Assembly: GCA_964485835.1 (NCBI GenBank)
Contig: CAZAKW010000003.1
Span: forward strand, 1 to 28,358
DNA: 28,358 bases
From: an uncultured Bacteriovoracaceae bacterium
GTDB lineage: Bacteria > Bdellovibrionota > UBA1018
Direction: 5' to 3'
Below the pieces are notes generated by a model. The model had not been told where the DNA came from, ran no database searches, and saw only the letters and a program-made list of their open reading frames with translations. Numbering within the stretch: the first letter of the stretch is position 1; each line of letters starts with the position of its first letter. Shown in pieces: positions 1,715 through 12,008 of this stretch. The translations under genes and the position numbers were made by a program.

Positions 1715-3769
1715 TCAATTCCCTGACGGCCCGCCGCTCGGGGTACGTTCGCCATGGCGTCGCGGACGGAGGTTCGATTGCACCTGCTTGGTACGGTTTT
1801 TTTCCACCTGCAATGCGATTTGATCCTCAAGATCAAGCGTAGCGTTGTAGAGCTGCAAGCTGATTTTTCCCGTCGGAACCGGAAGCATTTCAAAGGGCGC
1901 GTACTTTCGGCCCCAATACGTTCCATCGACGAAAATTTTCGTGTCCGCGCCTGGAGTGGATCGTACGGTGAGATAACCGCGGTTATCCCCTTTGATTACC
2001 ATCGTCGGCTCACGGCCGCGCTCCGGCTCCAGATTGATTTGTTTCAAATACTCTCCGGTCGAACCCAAAGAGCGGGAATCGATTTTGAATTCGCTGCGAA
2101 ACGATTCGAATCCGGGCCGCTGCACTAAGAGATCGAGCGGCGCATCGGTGGGAACTTCGATCACCGAACTTCCCGCCTCCGCGAATTTTCCATTCACGGA
2201 AATCCGCGTATCCGTCCCTTCCGGGAAAATATTCAAACGAAGCTTGGCCGGCGGAGTTTTGGGGGATTCCGATCCCGGCGCCTGCTTCGTACGCGGATCT
2301 TCGGTCGGCGTGTCCGCGGCGGGAAGCCGATTGGTGACTTGTGACCCGAGCATGGCCGAAAGGAGCGGGACCTGATATCCGAACTTTGGAGAAAGCCATG
2401 CGGCGCCCAAAACGACCGCGACCGTGGCGGCCACCCCTTTCCACCCGAAGCCCGAACGGGGCGGGTTGTACCCGATCGTACCGGCGCGGGTCAGATTAGT
2501 TCGGGAAAGATGGTACGCCCCTGGAGGCGTAGACGTTCCTAGGGTGCCGGGAGAACCGATGACGGTGCCCCCGCGGGAGGTCGGCGCCGGACGAGGCGGG
2601 ACTCGCACGGGAGGACGCTCGATCGCCAGCGGTGCTTGATGCTTGGGAAGATCGACTTTGAATTCCGCGGCGGCTTTTGGGAGCCCCGGCCGTGCGACGA
2701 ACGTCGTGGTCTCTTCGCGTCGTCCGGACGATCCTTCCCCGTTTTGAGGATTGATGTCGGGAATATCGTTTTGAAGAAGTTGTTCCACCCGGTCGTTCAG
2801 TTTTTGGATCTTTTTCCGGTCTTCAACGATTTCACGCTGGAAAAGCTCTTTGGTGACGTGTGAAAGATCGCTTCCCGAGAACTCGGGGGCGTAGGCCGCG
2901 AGAAACCTGCGCAAGGTGCGCTGAAGTTCGTCTCCGGTATTGAATCGTTTGTCCGGAGACTTCGCCAAAAGCTTCATCACAATCGCATCGAGATCCTTCG
3001 GCACGTTCGGATTGAGCTCGGAAGGGCGCCGTACCGAAGTACTGCAGCTCTCGATCATCTTCAAGACCGCCAGGTCGTTTTCCCCGGAGAAAAGCTTTCG
3101 CCCCACGAGAAGTTCCCAGAAAACCGCCCCCAAGGCGAAAAGATCCGTGCGCCCGTCGAGAGGATCTCCGGAAATCTGTTCGGGCGAAAGATAGCTCGGC
3201 TTGCCCTTGATCACGCCGGCCCGCGTGTTCTCGCTATTCGTCGTCGCTTTCGCGATTCCGAAGTCGATGATCTTCACTCCGCCTTCGTACGATACGAGAA
3301 CGTTCTGGGGACTGATGTCGCGATGGACGACGTTTAGCGCGTCTCCGCTGATTTTATCTTTATACGTATGGGCGTAATGCAGACCGGCGGCGGACTGCTC
3401 GATGATGTGCGCGGCGAGCTCGACGGGAAAGGGCTGGCCCAATTCCTTGAACCGGTTCAAGAGTTGGCGTAAATTTTTCCCGTCCACCAACTCCATCGCG
3501 ATGAACGGTTGGGCCTGCTCTTCTCCGAAATCGTAAACCTGCACGATGTTCGGATGATTCAGTCCCATCGTGACCTTAATCTCCGAACGGAACATCTTGA
3601 GGAATTCGTCGTTGCTCCCAAAACCCGCCTGGATTCGTTTTACAACGACCAAACGGCCCGCTCCGTCCTTAGCGGCGAAGCGTGCACGATAGATTTCGGC
3701 CATTCCACCCTGCGCGATCAAATCGAGCAGAAAGTAGCGACCGAATTTTTTGAGAACCTCGGACGACAT
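1715..3769 (-). CDS. Hanks-type Ser/Thr protein kinase with one TM helix and two extracytoplasmic PEGA-like domains
   Basis: Kinase motifs IAQGGMAEIY, VVKRI, HRDISPQNVL, DFGIAK and GKPSYLSPE. A Pro-rich linker leads to the TM helix GVAATVAVVLGAAWL, then PEGA-like LRLNIFPEG...VNG and GYLTVRSTPGAD..IFVDG. The start was moved to ATG 3769 (MSSEV), which has a GAGAGG SD; about 684 aa. Confidence 0.93.
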   Translation of the reverse strand: MSSEVLKKFGRYFLLDLIAQGGMAEIYRARFAAKDGAGRLVVVKRIQAGFGSNDEFLKMFRSEIKVTMGLNHPNIVQVYDFGEEQAQPFIAMELVDGKNLRQLLNRFKELGQPFPVELAAHIIEQSAAGLHYAHTYKDKISGDALNVVHRDISPQNVLVSYEGGVKIIDFGIAKATTNSENTRAGVIKGKPSYLSPEQISGDPLDGRTDLFALGAVFWELLVGRKLFSGENDLAVLKMIESCSTSVRRPSELNPNVPKDLDAIVMKLLAKSPDKRFNTGDELQRTLRRFLAAYAPEFSGSDLSHVTKELFQREIVEDRKKIQKLNDRVEQLLQNDIPDINPQNGEGSSGRREETTTFVARPGLPKAAAEFKVDLPKHQAPLAIERPPVRVPPRPAPTSRGGTVIGSPGTLGTSTPPGAYHLSRTNLTRAGTIGYNPPRSGFGWKGVAATVAVVLGAAWLSPKFGYQVPLLSAMLGSQVTNRLPAADTPTEDPRTKQAPGSESPKTPPAKLRLNIFPEGTDTRISVNGKFAEAGSSVIEVPTDAPLDLLVQRPGFESFRSEFKIDSRSLGSTGEYLKQINLEPERGREPTMVIKGDNRGYLTVRSTPGADTKIFVDGTYWGRKYAPFEMLPVPTGKISLQLYNATLDLEDQIALQVEKNRTKQVQSNLRPRRHGERTPSGGPSGN

Positions 3770-3813
3770 ATCGCCTCTCTCGTGGCCCGTTAGGGACAAG
3801 CACGTCTTAGATT

Positions 3814-3840
3814 CTATCGGAAAGTTCCTGAAGAAAGTTA
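3814..3840 (-). promoter_or_regulatory. Sigma28/FliA-like promoter candidate for the kinase gene
   Basis: The minus strand reads TAAC-N15-TCCGATAG, against the FliA consensus TAAA-N15-GCCGATAA. It is about 45 nt upstream of ATG 3769. Confidence 0.35.
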
Positions 3841-3922
3841 AAGGAAGTGGAAGGCTTCCCGTAAAAGAAGGCGCGCCGAACCGCGCCACAACCGTAAAAC
3901 TTTACTGAGTCAAATCAAGCCA

Positions 3923-5407
3923 TTAGGCCAAGGCCCGTGTTTTCAGCCGCTCCAGCAGCTTCGGTATAAAACCGCCGAAACCGCCGTTTGAAAGCACGGC
4001 GACTAAATCGCCCTGTTTTGAAGCGTCCGCCACGCGCTTGACGCCTTGATCGACATCCTCGAAAACGTCGGCGTCGCGACCCCGGCGACGAATATCTTCG
4101 GCGAGTTGCTGACTCGAAAACTGATCGGCGACATCGATTTGACTTTGATCGTAGGGAATAGCGATCCATCCGCCGTCGGCTTCGGCGAACGCATCGACGT
4201 ACTCTTGTTGGAAGATTTTCCGCCGAGAGGTCGCGCTGCGGGGCTCGAAGACAGCGACCAAACGCCGTCCGGGATATCGAGAACGCAAAGCGCGGAGCGT
4301 TTCACGCACCGCTGTGGGGTGGTGGGCGAAATCGTCGATGACGAGGACGCCGCCGAATTCGCCGCGTTCTTCCTGACGCCGTTTGATCCCCTGGAACGCG
4401 AATAGGCCCGCGGCGATCTCCTTGTTTGTCAACCCAAGCTCGCGCGCTTCGATCCACACCGCGATGGCGTTGAGCACGTTGTGATTCCCCGCGAGTCGAA
4501 GTCGAAGTGAGCACGCGGATCGAGTCGCAGAGCCGGTATTCTCGAGGATTTCGAACTGGGTTACGCCGTCCCCGTCGACGGTGATTTCGCTCGGAACGAA
4601 TCGAGCTCCGCTCTCTTTGGACCCGTAACTGATCACCGGGACCTGGGCCTCCGTCGCAAGTTCCTTCACGGACGCGTAATCAAAACAGGCGATGAGTCGG
4701 CCGCCAGGTCGAATCCGGCGCACGAGGCCCGAAAATGCGCGTTGGACGGCGGAAAAATCGGCGTAAATGTCCGCATGATCGAATTCGACGGAAGTGAGAA
4801 TCACATCGTCCGGAAGGTAGTGATTGAACTTCGGAACCTTATCCCAAAACGCGGTGTCGTATTCGTCGCCCTCCAATACAAACGGGCTCCCTGCTTCCCA
4901 TCGACCGACGTGAAAACTATTGGGAAGATCCCTGGAGACTCCGCCGATAAAATAGGAGGGGTCGCGATTCGCATGGGAGAGGACGTAAGCGAGGAGACTC
5001 GACGTCGTCGTTTTTCCGTGGGTTCCTGCAACCACCAGATTTCGGGTACGGGAAAGCAACAAACGCTCCATCGCCTCCGGGAGGGACGTATAGGGATATC
5101 CGCCTTCGATCGCCGCCTGCGCTTCGACATTTTTCTTCGTAATCACGTTCCCGATCACGACGAGATCGGGCCGACGCGGTAGATCCCGAAGATTCTCCGG
5201 CCGATACCCCGAGTAAAGTTGAATGCCCGCTTTCTGCAAAACATCGCTCATCGGCGGATAAACGTTCAAGTCGCTGCCCGTGACTTCGACCCCGCTGCGT
5301 TTTAGAAACGCGGCGAAAGCCCCCATCAAAGTGCCGCAGATGCCGATGATGTGGACGGATTTCAATTCAGAAAATGCTGGGATGGGAGCCGTGATGGAAA
5401 CGGACAT
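3923..5407 (-). CDS. mpl: UDP-N-acetylmuramate:L-alanyl-gamma-D-glutamyl-meso-diaminopimelate ligase (murein peptide ligase)
   Basis: HIIGICGTLMG, P-loop VAGTHGKTTTSS, EGDEYDTAFWDK, DDFAHHPTA and FEPRSATSRR. These are Mpl-type rather than MurC-type signatures. Confidence 0.9.
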   Translation of the reverse strand: MSVSITAPIPAFSELKSVHIIGICGTLMGAFAAFLKRSGVEVTGSDLNVYPPMSDVLQKAGIQLYSGYRPENLRDLPRRPDLVVIGNVITKKNVEAQAAIEGGYPYTSLPEAMERLLLSRTRNLVVAGTHGKTTTSSLLAYVLSHANRDPSYFIGGVSRDLPNSFHVGRWEAGSPFVLEGDEYDTAFWDKVPKFNHYLPDDVILTSVEFDHADIYADFSAVQRAFSGLVRRIRPGGRLIACFDYASVKELATEAQVPVISYGSKESGARFVPSEITVDGDGVTQFEILENTGSATRSACSLRLRLAGNHNVLNAIAVWIEARELGLTNKEIAAGLFAFQGIKRRQEERGEFGGVLVIDDFAHHPTAVRETLRALRSRYPGRRLVAVFEPRSATSRRKIFQQEYVDAFAEADGGWIAIPYDQSQIDVADQFSSQQLAEDIRRRGRDADVFEDVDQGVKRVADASKQGDLVAVLSNGGFGGFIPKLLERLKTRALA

Positions 5408-5441
5408 AGACCTAAATTGTCACCTTGATCGAACCCAATGG

Positions 5442-6596
5442 TCAACCGGGCTTGCGCGCGAAAAAATCCTCCGCGAGTGCGTCATGAAATCGCCCTCGGA
5501 AGGCTCGGATCGCCGTAGGGTGGCGGTTGGGATGGACGCGATTGGTAAGCAAGGTCACGACGACTTCCGAGACCGGATCGATCCAAATCGACGTTCCGGT
5601 GAAACCGACATGGCCAACGGAGCGCGGTGAAAACCGTCTTCCAAAAGCGGGCGCGTCGCCGCTAGGCGTGTCCCACCCTAGCGTACGGGTACATCCTTCC
5701 GGGATTCCCACCGGGCTCCAAGCTTCTCGGAGAACGTCGCGAGCGACGAAACCTTCAAGCAGACGCTTGCCGAAGCGTAGAAGGTTTTCCGCCGTCCCAA
5801 ACGCACCGGCGTGACCCGCATAGCCGCCGGATGCCCAACAGTTATCGTCATGAACCTGACCCTGCAAAATCGAATGGCGCCACGGACAGTCTTCCGTTGC
5901 GGCTACGTCCTCACGCCGCACGCGAAATGCCGGATCCACCGTACGCACGAAAAACGGGCCCGTGCCGACGCCCTCCGCGAAAAGCCCCATCGGACGCCAT
6001 ACGAATCGTTCGATGGCGTGATCCAAGGGAAGACCGGTGACCGCCTCCAGGCAGAATCCAAGAACCATGAAACCGACATCGGAATAAATCGCTTCCGTCC
6101 CCGGGCGTCGATCCAGATCCAACGAGAAGACAAGCTCCCGCAGAACCCGCTGCCGCTCCTCGACTTCAATCCGCTCGAGTTCGTCGGTCGCGAAAATCTC
6201 CCGTAGCTTCTCAAAGAAGGGTGCCCACGCCGGCAAGCCCGAAGTGTGGGCGGCGAGTTCGCGCAGCGAAATTTCGGCATGGCGAAATTCGGGCAAAATC
6301 GTCCGAACGGGCGTCGTCCACTCGATCCACCCGCGCTCGACCAAAACCATTGCCAATGCCGCCGTGCCGAAGACCTTCGTCACCGAAGCGAGATCGAATA
6401 CCGTTTCACGCTCCATCGGCAGCGCCGAAAAACCTTTAAGGGCTAACCGACGCTCTCCTCCCCATCCGAAATGAAAGACGTCCGGATCTCTCCGCGACCA
6501 GATGCCGGCCACCACGCCGGGAAAAACTTTTTCCGTAAGTCCGTCTTCTAAAACTTGGCGGGCGCGTGGAAATTCGGAAAACCCTTGAATTCCCAT
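5442..6596 (-). CDS. Beta-lactamase-family (SxxK) serine hydrolase with no signal peptide
   Basis: FDLASVTK (SxxK), YSD, HVGFTGTS and LLTNRVHP. The real start is ATG 6596, overlapping the upstream stop (TAATG); about 384 aa. Confidence 0.88.
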   Translation of the reverse strand: MGIQGFSEFPRARQVLEDGLTEKVFPGVVAGIWSRRDPDVFHFGWGGERRLALKGFSALPMERETVFDLASVTKVFGTAALAMVLVERGWIEWTTPVRTILPEFRHAEISLRELAAHTSGLPAWAPFFEKLREIFATDELERIEVEERQRVLRELVFSLDLDRRPGTEAIYSDVGFMVLGFCLEAVTGLPLDHAIERFVWRPMGLFAEGVGTGPFFVRTVDPAFRVRREDVAATEDCPWRHSILQGQVHDDNCWASGGYAGHAGAFGTAENLLRFGKRLLEGFVARDVLREAWSPVGIPEGCTRTLGWDTPSGDAPAFGRRFSPRSVGHVGFTGTSIWIDPVSEVVVTLLTNRVHPNRHPTAIRAFRGRFHDALAEDFFARKPG

Positions 6597-7825
6597 TAAA
6601 TCACCGCTGTTTCTTGGACCAAGCGCTGGGTTTCGAAACGGTTCGCCCCGAACGGCTCCAGATCCAGAATCTGGCTCCGCCCTTTCAGAATCCGCTCCGC
6701 GAGAGCAATCCCGCAGGCGTAACTGTGCATGATTCCGTGCCCGGAATAAGAATGGGATTCGAAAACACGCCCCGTGCCGCCGAGATTTCCCGTTTCGACC
6801 TCGCCGATGATCGCCGATTCGTCGGGCGAAACTTCGTACAGCCCCCCCCACCCGTTCAAGTGACGAAGACTTTCAAATCGACTGGAACGTTCGGCTAAGG
6901 GCATCCAGATTTTTTCTTGGAAATACTCCTCGCCGCCATAATCGAAATTTTGTCCGTGCGGCTCTCCTCTTTCGGCGATACCACCCAGGATATAGCCGGC
7001 CTCCGGATGGAAATAGACTCCCGACGTGTCCACGATCATCCCCTGCCCCGAAAGATCAACCTCGCGGCAGTCGAACAAGGAGACCTGCCGACGGACGCAG
7101 TAGGAGGGGGACTCATACCCAAGCATCCTCGCGATGTCCTTCGCCCAGGGACCCGCGCAATTCACGACGCGATCCGCGCGCACTCGGACCGCACCCGACC
7201 GCGGCTGTTCGAACGACCGATACATCGCTTCTTTTTGCTCGCGACTCGAAGACGGCGAAACGGCCTCAAATCCGAGCTCAACTCCGGCGGGCGCGACTCG
7301 CGCGTCCCGTAGCGCATGCCCGTTGACGAATATCGCGCCGGCCGCCTTCGCGCGATTTCGGAAATGGAGCTTGAGCAGATTCGAATTCAATAAACCGTCG
7401 CGAGGGGCGAACACCGCTCCCGCCAGGTCTTCCGCTCGGTCGATGAAAGGAGCGTGGGCCACTAATTTCGCTGGATCCCAAACCTCAAACGGCCACCCCG
7501 CTTTCTCCCACCGGGGAAAAGCTTGGCCCGTCCGCACTAAATCGTCAGGGGTCTGCAGCCATAAATATCCGACCGCGCGGTAGCCGACCTCGTCGGCGTG
7601 CTCCGCGAAATAATCGATCGATCGTTTCGAACATTCGATGTTCGCCGGATGATGGAACGTCGCTCGAACTCCGCCCGCGTTCAATTCGGTGCTGGAAAGA
7701 ACTCCTTCCAGGTCGGGATCGTATACGACGACTCCTTCCGCGCCTTGCTCGGCAAGGGCCATCGCGAGTGCGCTTCCGATGACGCCCGCGCCGATGATCG
7801 CTATTTGTGCGTCGGGAGTGGACAT
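6596..7825 (-). CDS. FAD-dependent oxidoreductase, DAO / sarcosine-oxidase-beta / FOXRED1-like family
   Basis: IIGAGVIG dinucleotide-binding motif, SSTELNAGGVR, VVNCAGPWA, YEVSPD and SGHGIMH. The substrate cannot be determined from sequence. Confidence 0.88.
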   Translation of the reverse strand: MSTPDAQIAIIGAGVIGSALAMALAEQGAEGVVVYDPDLEGVLSSTELNAGGVRATFHHPANIECSKRSIDYFAEHADEVGYRAVGYLWLQTPDDLVRTGQAFPRWEKAGWPFEVWDPAKLVAHAPFIDRAEDLAGAVFAPRDGLLNSNLLKLHFRNRAKAAGAIFVNGHALRDARVAPAGVELGFEAVSPSSSREQKEAMYRSFEQPRSGAVRVRADRVVNCAGPWAKDIARMLGYESPSYCVRRQVSLFDCREVDLSGQGMIVDTSGVYFHPEAGYILGGIAERGEPHGQNFDYGGEEYFQEKIWMPLAERSSRFESLRHLNGWGGLYEVSPDESAIIGEVETGNLGGTGRVFESHSYSGHGIMHSYACGIALAERILKGRSQILDLEPFGANRFETQRLVQETAVI

Positions 7826-7829
7826 AACA

Positions 7830-8822
7830 TCACCACATCAACGTCGTATACGTCTCGGCGATGATCTTCGGCTTGCCGGCCTCTTCGGCCACGTAAAGGA
7901 TCTTCGTGCCGCGCGAACGATGCCCCCAGCCTCCCCCTTTTAATTTAGAGCGGTAGTTCTGGGTAAACGTGATCATCCAATACTTGGGATGCCGATAATA
8001 AAGGATGTCTTCGGGTCCGATCGAAATCTCCGAATAGCGGGAATTTAAATTGGATTTATAAGTGCGCCATGCGTCCCGATCTTTACCTTGAGCGGAAAAA
8101 TCGGAATGATAGGAATCGATGTACGCTTCGATGTCGCGGTTTTCCCATGCGCGGATCCACGCGTCGAAAAACGTCCGGATCGACGGGTCTTTTCCGGGTT
8201 TTCGATACTCGTCAGTCAGATTCGGGAAGATCAGGATCGGCGTTAACCCGAGTCGGATCGACTTGGCGAGTTCGAGGACTTCCGCGTCCTGGCAAACGAC
8301 GCATCCTTCGCTGTCGTAATTCTCGTTTAATCGCGCCGGCTCGTCGGTGGCGTGAAGCCAAATCCCGTGCCCGGTGCGGCCGGCGATTCGGTCGTAATCG
8401 TTCGGGTAATTGAGCACGATCGCCATGGCGCCGTATTTTCGAGGAAGTGACGGTGGGCGCTTGATGCTGGTAAACGTGTAGATTCCTTCGGGCGTCTTCA
8501 GGTCGCCCTCTTCCTGCTTATCGCCCTTCACTTTTCCGAGTGTCGCGTGGATCGTCTTCAGGGTGACGTACTCACCCTCTTCAAGTCTCGCCAATTCGAT
8601 TGCGCTCGTCGCCTTATCCACCAATACGACGGAATAAAATTTCTTATTGGCCGGCGTGTCCGCGGAAGGCGTGCTCGTGTTCGCCACCGATGGGCTTGGC
8701 GACGGAGCGGGCGAAGTCGCCGAAGAAAAAGAACAACCGCTTCCGATCGCCGCCCAAATAGGGAGAACGAGGACTGCGAGTCGGGCCGAAGCCAATCGAG
8801 AGATGAACCGCTGCATTCTCAC
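7830..8822 (-). CDS. YkuD-family L,D-peptidase with C-terminal NTF2-like domain (Csd6/Pgp2/Bd1075-type L,D-carboxypeptidase), probably a lipoprotein
   Basis: GDKQEEGDLKTPEGIY, YPNDYD and GIWLHA...SEGCV (catalytic His/Cys). C-terminal WIRAWENRDIEAYIDSY...FTQNYRS...GTKILY...KIIAE. N-terminal hydrophobic stretch ending IGSGC, then an S/P/T-rich linker. Confidence 0.85.
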   Translation of the reverse strand: MRMQRFISRLASARLAVLVLPIWAAIGSGCSFSSATSPAPSPSPSVANTSTPSADTPANKKFYSVVLVDKATSAIELARLEEGEYVTLKTIHATLGKVKGDKQEEGDLKTPEGIYTFTSIKRPPSLPRKYGAMAIVLNYPNDYDRIAGRTGHGIWLHATDEPARLNENYDSEGCVVCQDAEVLELAKSIRLGLTPILIFPNLTDEYRKPGKDPSIRTFFDAWIRAWENRDIEAYIDSYHSDFSAQGKDRDAWRTYKSNLNSRYSEISIGPEDILYYRHPKYWMITFTQNYRSKLKGGGWGHRSRGTKILYVAEEAGKPKIIAETYTTLMW

Positions 8823-8826
8823 TAGT

Positions 8827-9570
8827 TTAGTGAGCGTCAGCGGACCCCGTCAAGAACTTGCGGGAATGAACGCGGAATCCCCAGACCCGGGCCAACGCCT
8901 CAAAAACGATTCTTTTGTTCATCTTCGATTTTCCGACCTTCCGATCTTCGAAAATAATCGGGAACTCCTGGATCCGAAAACCCCTTAAAAAAGCGCGGTA
9001 TTTCAGTTCGATCTGGAACGAATATCCGTCGCTTCGCAAGGACCCCAAATCGACCGCGGAGAGAACGGGACGTCTCCAGCCGTTAAAACCGCCGGTAAAA
9101 TCACGAATCGTCGCGCCAAGAATCAGTCGGGAGTAAAGGCTGCCGCCACGAGAAAGAATTTTTCGGCCGATTCCCCAATTTCGAGTGCCCCCCCCGTCCA
9201 CGTAGCGTGAGCCGATCGCGACATCCGCGGTCTCCAGCGTGGCGAGCATGGTCTTGAGGTACGAAGGGTGGTGTGAAAAATCGGCGTCCATTTCGATGAA
9301 CGCCTCGTATTCCGGACGGGCAAGCCCCCAGCGAAATCCGTGTACGTAAGCCGTACCAAGACCCATTTTTTTTTCGCGGTGAAGGACGTGGACCCGCGTT
9401 TCGTAGCGAGTCGCCAGGACGTCGATGATTGCCCCGGTGCCGTCTGGCGAATTATCGTCGACGACCAGGACGTCGACGGTAGAAGGGGTGGAGGCGAGAA
9501 TCGCCTCCACCAGAGACTGAATATTTTCGACTTCGTTATAGGTCGGTACGACGATCAGTGCGCGCATCAA
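8827..9570 (-). CDS. GT2 polyprenol-monophosphomannose synthase (DPM1/Ppm1-like)
   Basis: [53 protein letters not shown] and [11 protein letters not shown]. Confidence 0.85.
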
Positions 9571-10052
9571 AATGGAATATCGTCTTCCGTAAACGAAGGC
9601 TCGGCGGGAGCGCCCATGCCGAAGCCGGATCCGCCCATATTTCCAGGATTTGGGCCTTCATTGAAGCCACCGGAAGATTGAGCGCTTGGTCCGGGCGAGT
9701 TCGCGCGGCCTTCGCTTGCACCGGCTTGTCCGTTCAAGAATTGAATCGTCTGCGCCTGAACTTCGGTTGAATACTTTGTCTGGCCGTCTTTGTCCTGCCA
9801 CGAGCGCGTCTGCAAACGTCCTTCGACGTAGCATTGGCGCCCCTTCGCAAGATACTGATTGCAGAGCTCAGCGAGCTTGCCCCAGACGACGACACGGTGC
9901 CATTCCGTGCGTTCCTGCTTCTGACCACTTTTATCCGTCCAGGCCTCATTCGTCGCGACACTGAAGTTCGCGACTGCGGAACCGCTCGGCGTGTACCGAA
10001 CTTCCGGATTTTGGCCCAATCTCCCCACCAAAATGACTTTATTGACTGACAT
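9567..10052 (-). CDS. ssb: Single-stranded DNA-binding protein
   Basis: [44 protein letters not shown], a Gly-rich linker and the acidic tail EDDIPF. Confidence 0.98.
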
Positions 10053-10114
10053 GCCCCACGGTGTACGGGCTCGGGACCCTGTAGGTCAAGTTCTCGATCG
10101 ATCGGATGCGGAAT

Positions 10115-10666
10115 CTAATCCGCCGATCCGGGCACTTCGCTCCCCGGAGAATCGACTCGCGAAATCCCCTCAATTTTCGAATACGTCGAGGCGCGATCAT
10201 GCGTTATAGACGCATCGCGCTGCTGACGCGACGCGTGGATTCCTATCTTCTCTTCGGGAAACGGAATCCCTTTTTCTTCGAATTTCGTCTTCCAGTGCGC
10301 ACGGACCGCCTGTCGAGCTCGCCCAACGTCTACAAGGTAAAGGACGGGGTCAAATCCGCATTGCCCGCAAATAACGGAACCGCGGACTTTAGTACGATAA
10401 ATGATCTCAAACGCGATCCAAAGAGGAACGAACGCGACTAGCCCCTTGGAGCCAATCCAAGGAAAGAGAGCCCATAGCCCGAGTGCGAAGACGACGGCGG
10501 TCAAACCAATCTGAATAAAGTGTCGCGGACGACCGGGCTCCGGATGCATTCCGAGGCGTCGCGGAACCGAGCACATCGGGCAGAAGAAATTAAAATTTTG
10601 ATTAAATCGCTCTTTCCAGATCGATCGAGAGGCGGCGCGAATGACATCGTGTCGATTTCGTTCCAT
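10115..10666 (-). CDS. Hypothetical membrane protein, CxxC-TM-TM-CxxC
   Basis: FFCPMC, then two hydrophobic helices (FIQIGLTAVVFALGLWALF; GLVAFVPLWIAFEIIY), then ICGQCGFDP. The start was moved to ATG 10666, which has a GGAG SD; about 183 aa. Confidence 0.7.
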   Translation of the reverse strand: MERNRHDVIRAASRSIWKERFNQNFNFFCPMCSVPRRLGMHPEPGRPRHFIQIGLTAVVFALGLWALFPWIGSKGLVAFVPLWIAFEIIYRTKVRGSVICGQCGFDPVLYLVDVGRARQAVRAHWKTKFEEKGIPFPEEKIGIHASRQQRDASITHDRASTYSKIEGISRVDSPGSEVPGSAD

Positions 10667-10718
10667 GATAAAGGTCTCCGTAATCCGATCCCCTCCGGGG
10701 ACCGTCTTAAATTTTAAC

Positions 10719-12008
10719 ATGAAATCCGCGAAATCAATGAACCCCAAGAAAAAAGCCGGGCCTCGTCCCGATCGTGAAAAAAAACGGGTCACCGTCAAAC
10801 TCGGCCGCGGTTCGCCATCCCCTCGGCAAAAGGTGCCTAGCGTCCGCGAAGCCCCAGTCGCTTCGTTTACATTTCCCGTCGCCTGGACCTGGTTCTTTGA
10901 CGAATGTTTGCCGGCCTGGGTGAAAGACCGCTATTCCCCTCGTGAAAGCTGGAAGGGAAAACCTTTTTCCTCCGAAGACGGAAAGTTCTTCCTTCGCGGA
11001 GTGCGTGAACTTTCCGACCTATTCACGGACGCACGCCCCAAGAACTTGGCCGATTATCTGGCGCACGAAAAATATCGCTCGAGTTACCTTCTTTATTTCC
11101 TTCCTCTCCAGGCCGCGAAATTCATCGCGCTTTTCATCCTCCACGCCAAAGCGATCGATGCGGCGCTGGCCCACGGACGCGAAACCGGCACGCTTCGCGT
11201 GGTCGACTTAGGGGCCGGTCCCGCGACCGCTTCCATCGCCCTGCTCCTGCTGCTCCTCGGTCGTAAGGACGAACTCCCCGAGCAAATCGAATTCGTGCTC
11301 TTCGACCAAAACGCGTCGATTCTTCGGGACGGAGAAGACCTTCTGAATCGTATCGGGGAATCTTTTCCCAAGACTCGCGGACGCGTGAAAGTTCGCCGAG
11401 TCGTCGGGGATCTTTGGCATACGATTTACAAAGAAGAAGGCGAAGTCTCGCTTGCGCTCTTCGGACATACCGTAAACGAGTACCTTCCCACGCGAGATGG
11501 TCGTCCCGACCCGCGCCCTTTCACCCACCTCTTCGAACGAACCGCCCGCGGCGGCGGAATTCTCTGGGCGGAGCCCGCCGCCCGAATTCCTTCGCAGACT
11601 CTGTCCCAGCTGCGTGATTTTTTTCTCGAAGAAAATTTAATTGAGTCCTCGCCGTCCCGGATTTGGGGCCCCTGCCTGCACGCCGGTCGCTGCCCGCTCG
11701 CCATTGGTCGCGATTGGTGCCACTTCAGCATTCCTGGAAAAGTGCCCGGAAAATGGTTCGGATTCTTCTCCAAAGGCCTATCGAAGGAAAAAGAGTGGCT
11801 CAAGTACTCCTACTTATGGATCACGGCCGCGGGGGATCCGAATCCCGAGCGCGCGGCTCCCGAAGAACGACTCGTGCTCTCCGATCCGCTTTCGCGCGAT
11901 CCGCGCGCGAAACAGGAAGTCTTGCTCTGCGAGCCGGACGCTCCGAATCGCTACACGCTCAAGCCCCTCGAAGTGGCGAGACGGGGCATGCGGATTCGGA
12001 CTCGTTAG
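10719..12008 (+). CDS. Rsm22/METTL17-like SAM-dependent methyltransferase-fold protein (small ribosomal subunit Rsm22 family)
   Basis: YLLYFLP, SAM motif I VVDLGAGPATAS, WAEPA, GPCLHAGRCPL...DWCHFS, YSYLWI and LLCEP. The start is ATG 10719 or 10737, avoiding overlap with the divergent gene. Confidence 0.75.
   Translation: MKSAKSMNPKKKAGPRPDREKKRVTVKLGRGSPSPRQKVPSVREAPVASFTFPVAWTWFFDECLPAWVKDRYSPRESWKGKPFSSEDGKFFLRGVRELSDLFTDARPKNLADYLAHEKYRSSYLLYFLPLQAAKFIALFILHAKAIDAALAHGRETGTLRVVDLGAGPATASIALLLLLLGRKDELPEQIEFVLFDQNASILRDGEDLLNRIGESFPKTRGRVKVRRVVGDLWHTIYKEEGEVSLALFGHTVNEYLPTRDGRPDPRPFTHLFERTARGGGILWAEPAARIPSQTLSQLRDFFLEENLIESSPSRIWGPCLHAGRCPLAIGRDWCHFSIPGKVPGKWFGFFSKGLSKEKEWLKYSYLWITAAGDPNPERAAPEERLVLSDPLSRDPRAKQEVLLCEPDAPNRYTLKPLEVARRGMRIRTR

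Follow-up and report, generated by a model that had tools for sequence, protein, structure and literature searches.

The DNA analysed here, hereafter the window, is a stretch of 28,358 nucleotides (positions 1 to 28,358 of contig CAZAKW010000003.1, assembly GCA_964485835.1) from an uncultured Bacteriovoracaceae bacterium of the phylum Bdellovibrionota. Between positions 3923 and 8822, its minus strand carries four tightly packed genes. In the direction of transcription they encode an LD-carboxypeptidase of the Bd1075/Csd6/Pgp2 type (7830–8822; 330 amino acids from a GTG start codon, with ATG at 8816 as a second possible start), a cytoplasmic flavin adenine dinucleotide (FAD) oxidoreductase of the DAO family (6596–7825; 409 amino acids), a signal-less serine hydrolase of the beta-lactamase fold with an SxxK motif (5442–6596; 384 amino acids) and an Mpl-type ligase of tripeptide to UDP-N-acetylmuramic acid (UDP-MurNAc; 3923–5407; 494 amino acids). 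The hydrolase, hereafter the SxxK protein, is the main subject of this analysis and is proposed to be an AmiE-like (anhydro)MurNAc-L-alanine amidase.

The gene junctions were read directly from the sequence. The TGA stop codon of the LD-carboxypeptidase gene is separated by 4 nt (TGTT) from the ATG of the flavoprotein gene, the TAA of the latter shares one base with the ATG of the SxxK gene (TAATG), and 34 nt lie between the TGA of the SxxK gene and the ATG of mpl. A previous interpretation of the window made from its letters alone (the sequence-only reading) had described the same four genes with the same spacings, all of which are exact. Translational coupling of the flavoprotein and SxxK genes via the stop/start overlap is possible. 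A longer open reading frame of 469 amino acids for the SxxK gene, reaching 255 nt into the flavoprotein gene, was rejected, as no homologue backs it. Because the database homologues were 374–412 amino acids long and their alignments began at residues 2–9, the ATG at 6596 was taken as the true start.

The SxxK protein matched the Pfam family PF00144 with 157.5 bits (cut-off 27, E = 6e-46) and contained the motifs S71-x-x-K74 (SVTK), Y171-S-D and H329-x-G331 (HVG). Residues S71, K74, Y171, S172 and D173 were invariant in 45 homologues, and H329 and G331 were invariant or nearly so. The domain of the AmpD-type zinc amidases (Amidase_2, PF01510) was not found in any of the four window proteins with Pfam or NCBIfam. 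The best curated family was PBP4B (NCBIfam NF002968; 113.9 bits, under the cut-off of 385), and the protein shared 28% identity (E = 4e-38) and the motifs SxTK, YSD, VHD(D/E), GHAG-F and GH-G-TGT with its Escherichia coli member YfeW. The AlphaFold2 model was of high confidence (pLDDT, the predicted local distance difference test, 95.2). The best solved matches, by sequence search and by Foldseek, were family VIII esterases and class C beta-lactamases; the Foldseek relatives were remote (at most 24% identity, template modelling score approximately 0.7). The solved structures do not discriminate between possible functions.

A scan of 1.84 billion representative sequences yielded 1911 clusters of homologues at E ≤ 1e-30, among them multi-domain proteins at approximately 205–210 bits and 40–46% identity (36–46% over the whole domain across comparisons). 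Their Pfam architectures were GH3(NagZ)-PF00144, PF00144-NamZ and GH3-PF00144-NamZ, and a structure-based atlas search agreed. With a NagZ-fused domain, the SxxK protein shared 36% identity (E = 3e-72). In a maximum-likelihood tree, AmpC and AmpH were placed outside (support 100/99). All 23 Mpl-linked proteins formed one clade (96/91) adjoining the fused group, with YfeW outside it; AmpC and AmpH were more distant from the SxxK protein than YfeW and the NagZ/NamZ-associated domains. Sequence comparison thus supports membership of the SxxK protein in the AmiE/PBP4B-like branch of the class C beta-lactamase fold.

Among the nearest known counterparts of the SxxK protein is AmiE (YbbE) of Bacillus subtilis. 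AmiE is a PF00144 protein (PMC10653849, Table 1) encoded in the operon murQ-murR-murP-amiE-nagZ-namZ, in which the exo-amidase AmiE, the glucosaminidase NagZ and the muramidase NamZ act in sequence (PMC8054146). Both proteins share the Pfam family, a link to muropeptide rescue and, as proposed here, the bond cleaved, and the AmiE partners NagZ and NamZ are the very enzymes fused to close homologues of the SxxK protein. The likeness is drawn from this shared family, from the fusions mirroring the AmiE operon and from YfeW, rather than from a direct comparison with the AmiE sequence. YfeW is encoded by the last gene of the E. coli murQ-murP operon and, as PBP4B, is described in the title of a reference as a penicillin-binding protein whose affinity is low and which has DD-carboxypeptidase activity (PMC5061867). 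Nearest curated family, common motifs and a gene in a MurNAc recycling operon connect YfeW to the SxxK protein; in contrast, YfeW has a signal-like N-terminus and lies outside the Mpl-linked clade, and the SxxK protein scores far under the family cut-off.

The predicted compartment differs between these groups. Neither the SxxK protein nor any of 116 close homologues had a hydrophobic or signal-like N-terminus, as the sequence-only reading had noted for the window protein. In other phyla, no such N-terminus was present in the 29 assessable loci linked to ldcA or mpl, most of which leave no room for one. YfeW and the NagZ/NamZ-fused proteins do have a signal-like N-terminus. AmiE is secreted, works outside the cell after NagZ and feeds MurNAc catabolism, whereas the signal-less SxxK protein is tied to mpl and ldcA, that is, to the re-use of peptides in the cytoplasm.

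The linkage to mpl was assessed in relatives from the family and order, in a sample of 301 Bdellovibrionota genomes (homologue threshold E ≤ 1e-40, adjacency counted by eye from coordinates) and in 77 loci from other phyla. The genomes searched were samples of their groups, and kin among them are not independent. The SxxK gene was followed by mpl in all 30 loci from family and order relatives. This order-level linkage is weak evidence because the whole neighbourhood, from an Rsm22-like gene to a kinase gene and including ssb and a GT2 glycosyltransferase gene, is syntenic within the order. Phylum-wide, an SxxK homologue was found in 107 of the 301 genomes. In approximately 83 of these 107, mpl followed it immediately on the same strand; one or two inserted genes (1.4–2.2 kb) separated the same-strand pair in 12, and a gap of approximately 0.9 kb in one. 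For six genomes, SxxK and Mpl were encoded on different contigs or the coordinates of Mpl were not listed. More divergent SxxK-mpl pairs occurred in three further Bdellovibrionota families, and ldcA, encoding the cytoplasmic S66 LD-carboxypeptidase, preceded the pair in families f21, f25, f2 and f7.

Throughout family f10, a DUF4442 protein and a protein of 266–269 amino acids are encoded between SxxK and mpl (L057:6744–8038, L061:5127–6422), the latter with a weak methyltransferase match in one genome. Genome G048 belongs to family f22, in which no intact orthologue was found. Upstream of its mpl lies an open reading frame of 301 amino acids (L068:9297–10202, minus strand) that matched only the C-terminal third of the beta-lactamase fold, with 31.6 bits, and may be a degenerate SxxK remnant; a protein of 773 amino acids with a weak Fic match is encoded next to it (L068:6893–9214, minus strand).

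Among the 77 loci from other phyla, mpl was adjacent in at least 17, ldcA in 31 and one or both in 33. Metagenome-assembled genomes (MAGs) with the labels Binataceae, Myxococcota, Thermodesulfobacteriota and Spirochaetales had the order ldcA-SxxK-mpl, as did unclassified 'delta proteobacterium' MAGs. One MAG of Nitrospinota had SxxK-mpl with no ldcA detected, and Nitrospirota had the reverse order mpl-SxxK-ldcA. The SxxK-mpl pairing thus recurs in at least six phyla besides Bdellovibrionota and in two gene orders, an adjacency far beyond chance. The conserved core is SxxK-mpl, extended to ldcA-SxxK-mpl in other lineages; it is not the set of four window genes. In Desulfobacterales, ldcA-SxxK was followed directly by mreB (L085, L083, L075 and nine further loci, 81–100% mutual identity), an arrangement that sets the recycling pair beside an elongation cytoskeleton gene. 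Ten Acidobacteriota loci (L084, L086, L109, L112, L118, L120, L121, L133, L141 and L147) carried two SxxK-family paralogues in head-to-head orientation, separated by a few hundred bases, with neither mpl nor ldcA nearby.

What is known of peptidoglycan recycling comes mainly from gammaproteobacteria, which use AmpD as the cytoplasmic amidase. The source genome was checked for ampD, ampG and ldcA, as suggested along with the sequence-only reading. AmpG (496 bits, over the cut-off), a GH3 protein of NagZ size, AnmK and an S66 LdcA (contig C370) were found, and no Amidase_2 match was obtained in this genome, which is 84.6% complete. The Mpl protein of the window has three Mur ligase domains in Pfam and scored 352.4 bits with TIGR01081 (mpl; cut-off 388.7) and 302.3 bits with murC, also under its cut-off. 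A separate true MurC (493 bits) is encoded on contig C139 in a cluster of the cell-division type. With AmpG, NagZ, AnmK, LdcA and Mpl present and Amidase_2 not found, only the amidase step is unfilled; the E. coli-type cytoplasmic route is otherwise complete in the source genome. MurQ was not found in this genome or in the relatives G002, G003, G013 and G163 (weak SIS-domain matches only); AnmK was present in all five, which hints at a MurQ-independent fate of 1,6-anhydro-MurNAc.

Local gene replacements provided further evidence for the amidase step. AmpD (NF008758) was over the cut-off in just two of the 301 phylum genomes, G009 and G111. Genome G009 (AmpD, 290 bits) was the sole one without SxxK among 40 near relatives, and in G111 a true ampD lay directly upstream of mpl. 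Two genomes of one genus differed in the gene at the SxxK position: G077 had the order LdcA-SxxK-X-Mpl, whereas G174 had LdcA-Amidase_2-X-Mpl, with an Amidase_2 protein of 212 amino acids and no signal. The flanking genes of these two loci were orthologous, mostly with 54–79% identity; gene X fell to 27.5%. In G114, an Amidase_2 gene was located between mpl and ldcA. The loss of SxxK was therefore accompanied by an AmpD-type gene in four genomes; this gene was beside mpl in three of them and once in the SxxK slot itself. In other phyla, 26 of the 33 genomes with an SxxK gene linked to ldcA or mpl had no Amidase_2 match, and the remaining matches lay mostly in long multi-domain frames. A phylum-wide anticorrelation of SxxK and AmpD was considered as evidence and discarded: AmpD is so rare that presence/absence complementarity is uninformative at this scale, and we relied on the local swaps instead.

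In G009 (L044, G009:C28, approximately 8890–11545), mpl has the inverted orientation and adjoins the flavoprotein gene, while ssb and the genes for the GT2 glycosyltransferase, the LD-carboxypeptidase, the flavoprotein and the kinase are kept. Gene X of family f25 (L056:5410–7515 in G077, L055:5365–7539 in G174) encodes 701 and 724 amino acids, respectively, without a Pfam match, next to neighbours that are 73–79% identical.

On the basis of this comparative genomics, we hypothesize that the SxxK protein is probably a cytoplasmic AmiE-like muramoyl-L-alanine amidase. In the proposed route, muropeptides would enter via AmpG and NagZ would take off N-acetylglucosamine. The SxxK enzyme would then cleave the lactyl-L-Ala amide and free the stem peptide from (anhydro)MurNAc, the step performed in E. 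coli by the zinc amidase AmpD. LdcA would trim any tetrapeptide to tripeptide, and Mpl, encoded 34 nt downstream, would join the tripeptide to UDP-MurNAc; the sacculus may have been trimmed earlier by the periplasmic Bd1075-type enzyme. The freed anhydro-sugar would be handled by AnmK. The sequence-only reading had suggested an amidase or peptidase supplying Mpl in place of AmpD. The missing signal, the Mpl linkage across phyla, the Amidase_2 hole and the swaps all agree with that suggestion, but the amidase activity and its substrate, anhydro or reducing MurNAc, are predictions from sequence.

Several observations weigh against this assignment. The source genome is an incomplete MAG (3.03 Mb in 483 contigs), and the tree that places the SxxK protein in the AmiE/PBP4B-like branch was built without AmiE itself. 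The substrates of AmiE are reducing MurNAc-peptides found outside the cell, while the role proposed here is inside the cell, possibly on 1,6-anhydro substrates, and with UDP-MurNAc-peptides spared. The DD-carboxypeptidase activity that the cited title reports for PBP4B makes a peptidase activity in this branch possible by analogy. In five of the 107 SxxK-bearing genomes, all from family f13, no Mpl was found, and a few genomes carry both SxxK and an Amidase_2 protein. Lastly, AmpD is rare throughout the phylum, even in families without an SxxK orthologue at the threshold applied (e.g. f22).

The alternative that survives best is that the SxxK protein is a cytoplasmic peptidase (a DD-carboxypeptidase, D-aminopeptidase or stem-peptide endopeptidase) that edits free or UDP-linked stem peptides for LdcA and Mpl. 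The solved relatives of the S12/class C type include DD-peptidases, D-aminopeptidases and D-amino-acid amidases; PBP4B, as the nearest curated family, is a reported carboxypeptidase; and adjacency to ldcA and mpl suits a peptide-editing enzyme equally well. The gene swaps point the other way: where SxxK is replaced in situ, or where its absence is accompanied by another gene, that gene is of the Amidase_2/AmpD type and not a peptidase gene. The unfilled step of the genome is likewise that of the amidase, with LdcA and a Bd1075-type LD-carboxypeptidase both present, and NagZ and NamZ, with which the amidase AmiE works, are fused to the closest relatives of the SxxK protein. We regard a peptidase as unlikely. 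An analogue of LdcA was also considered for the SxxK protein and rejected, as the genome has its own S66 LdcA and ldcA is the immediate neighbour of SxxK in many lineages.

The sequence-only reading had joined all four genes into one module and had the flavoprotein dispose of released D-amino acids. In the version examined here, the periplasmic LD-carboxypeptidase would feed tripeptide-rich fragments into the pathway and the flavoprotein would oxidise the released D-alanine or another amine. The assignment of the first enzyme was borne out. The protein encoded at 7830–8822 combines a YkuD domain (PF03734) with a C-terminal NTF2-like domain (Cds6_C, PF24125); its best solved relative was Bd1075 (7O21, E = 3.7e-40), ahead of Csd6 and Pgp2, and its His-Ala...Cys-Val-Val pattern aligned with H141/A142/C156/V158 of Bd1075. 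It has a hydrophobic signal-like N-terminus with a lipobox-like GSGC motif. No S66 (LdcA) domain was found in the products of the four window genes with Pfam. In Bdellovibrio bacteriovorus, Bd1075 is exported, acts as an LD-carboxypeptidase turning tetrapeptides into tripeptides, and determines cell shape and curvature (PMC8938487). The window enzyme shares its two-domain build, exported N-terminus and active-site pattern, and may likewise enrich tripeptide stems before turnover.

The flavoprotein matched PF01266 (E = 1.5e-41), which covers the general DAO fold, and exceeded no NCBIfam equivalog cut-off for D-amino acid dehydrogenase or oxidase, glycine oxidase or sarcosine oxidase; the best score was with N-methyltryptophan oxidase (50 bits versus a cut-off of 257). 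Its best match in the PDB was 1Y56_B, and the nearest atlas clusters were unnamed FAD oxidoreductases of Bdellovibrionota and Myxococcota.

Tight packing, the stop/start overlap of the flavoprotein and SxxK genes and the recurrence of the four-gene order in many genomes from the family and order would suit such a module, as would the fact that SxxK-mpl is preceded in different lineages by an LD-carboxypeptidase gene, be it ldcA or one of the Csd6 type. The linkage within the order tells little, however, given the shared synteny of the whole neighbourhood, and even there the flavoprotein gene was missing or displaced in several relatives. Outside the order, neither this gene nor that of the Bd1075-type enzyme was next to SxxK-mpl in the Bdellovibrionota loci examined, and the same held for the loci of other phyla; there, the partner is the cytoplasmic LdcA instead. 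The flavoprotein reached no specific oxidase family, and bd1075 is monocistronic in B. bacteriovorus HD100 (PMC8938487), unlike the window gene with its DAO, SxxK and mpl neighbours. The four genes are thus improbable as a functional unit; a module that takes in the flavoprotein could at most be a lineage-specific addition. The accompanying idea that the module salvages the walls of prey is not needed, since the same triad occurs in Desulfobacterales, Nitrospirota and Binatota. These groups are not known as predators.

That the SxxK protein is instead an unrelated esterase or beta-lactamase, adjacent to mpl without functional meaning, is very unlikely: the best solved matches are of these types and homologues carry source annotations such as 'beta-lactamase family' or 'CubicO group peptidase', but the structural matches are remote, adjacency to mpl and/or ldcA is kept over at least seven phyla and two gene orders, and the cytoplasmic location speaks against a resistance beta-lactamase.

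On the minus strand, the four genes sit within a longer co-directional array, whose gaps are at most 34 nt or are overlaps. Its first gene is ssb (9567–10052), followed by the gene of a GT2 glycosyltransferase (8827–9570), which is part of the order-level syntenic block and outside the recycling core. After the four genes, 33 nt downstream of mpl, comes the gene of a Ser/Thr protein kinase (1715–3889; 724 amino acids). We infer that the array genes are co-transcribed. Matches in a promoter and terminator scan of the locus were at or near the shuffle expectation, so that no operon boundaries could be drawn. Pfam recognised only the kinase domain of the Ser/Thr kinase (residues 57–319), leaving approximately 400 C-terminal residues without assignment. 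The adjacency of mpl and the kinase gene was kept across the order, with the kinase gene on the opposite strand in some genomes, and the kinase might sense wall fragments.

AmiE, AmpD, LdcA, Mpl and Bd1075 are each already known. Among the papers searched, we found none on an operon of ldcA, a beta-lactamase-like gene and mpl or on a serine replacement of AmpD, and none on a signal-less AmiE-like clade tied to ldcA and mpl in genomes without AmpD, or on its swaps with AmpD-type genes. A related case is RmNag3 of Rhodothermus marinus, a fusion of GH3 with a beta-lactamase-like domain, the function of which was not characterised in that study, from an organism reported to lack AmpD and AmpG (PMC6987092). 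In this domain RmNag3 matches the fused relatives described above in kind; unlike the SxxK protein, it is exported and fused. AmpD and the SxxK protein share the proposed step and compartment, and AmpD/Amidase_2 genes lie beside mpl and ldcA in genomes without SxxK. The two are nevertheless unrelated in fold and chemistry, one being a zinc amidase and the other expected to work through a serine acyl-enzyme.

AmpG and/or LdcA and Mpl are retained in the phylum as a whole and in many genomes from several others, mostly with no AmpD seen, and the release of the stem peptide is therefore the step to be explained in these bacteria. A signal-less AmiE-like hydrolase encoded between ldcA and mpl is a concrete and easily testable candidate for it. 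Whether the cytoplasmic AmiE-like clade of the ldcA-SxxK-mpl loci is a general non-orthologous replacement of AmpD in Bdellovibrionota, Myxococcota, Thermodesulfobacteriota, Nitrospirota, Nitrospinota, Binatota and some Spirochaetota we consider evenly balanced; such a serine-based amidase would have to spare UDP-MurNAc-peptides by a specificity mechanism other than that of AmpD. If the amidase assignment is true, the AmpD reaction would gain a second enzyme class, unrelated in mechanism to the first, and many proteins whose annotation is now only 'beta-lactamase family' or 'serine hydrolase' would acquire a function. The assignment would also aid the reading of wall turnover in Bdellovibrio-like bacteria, including their possible handling of prey walls.

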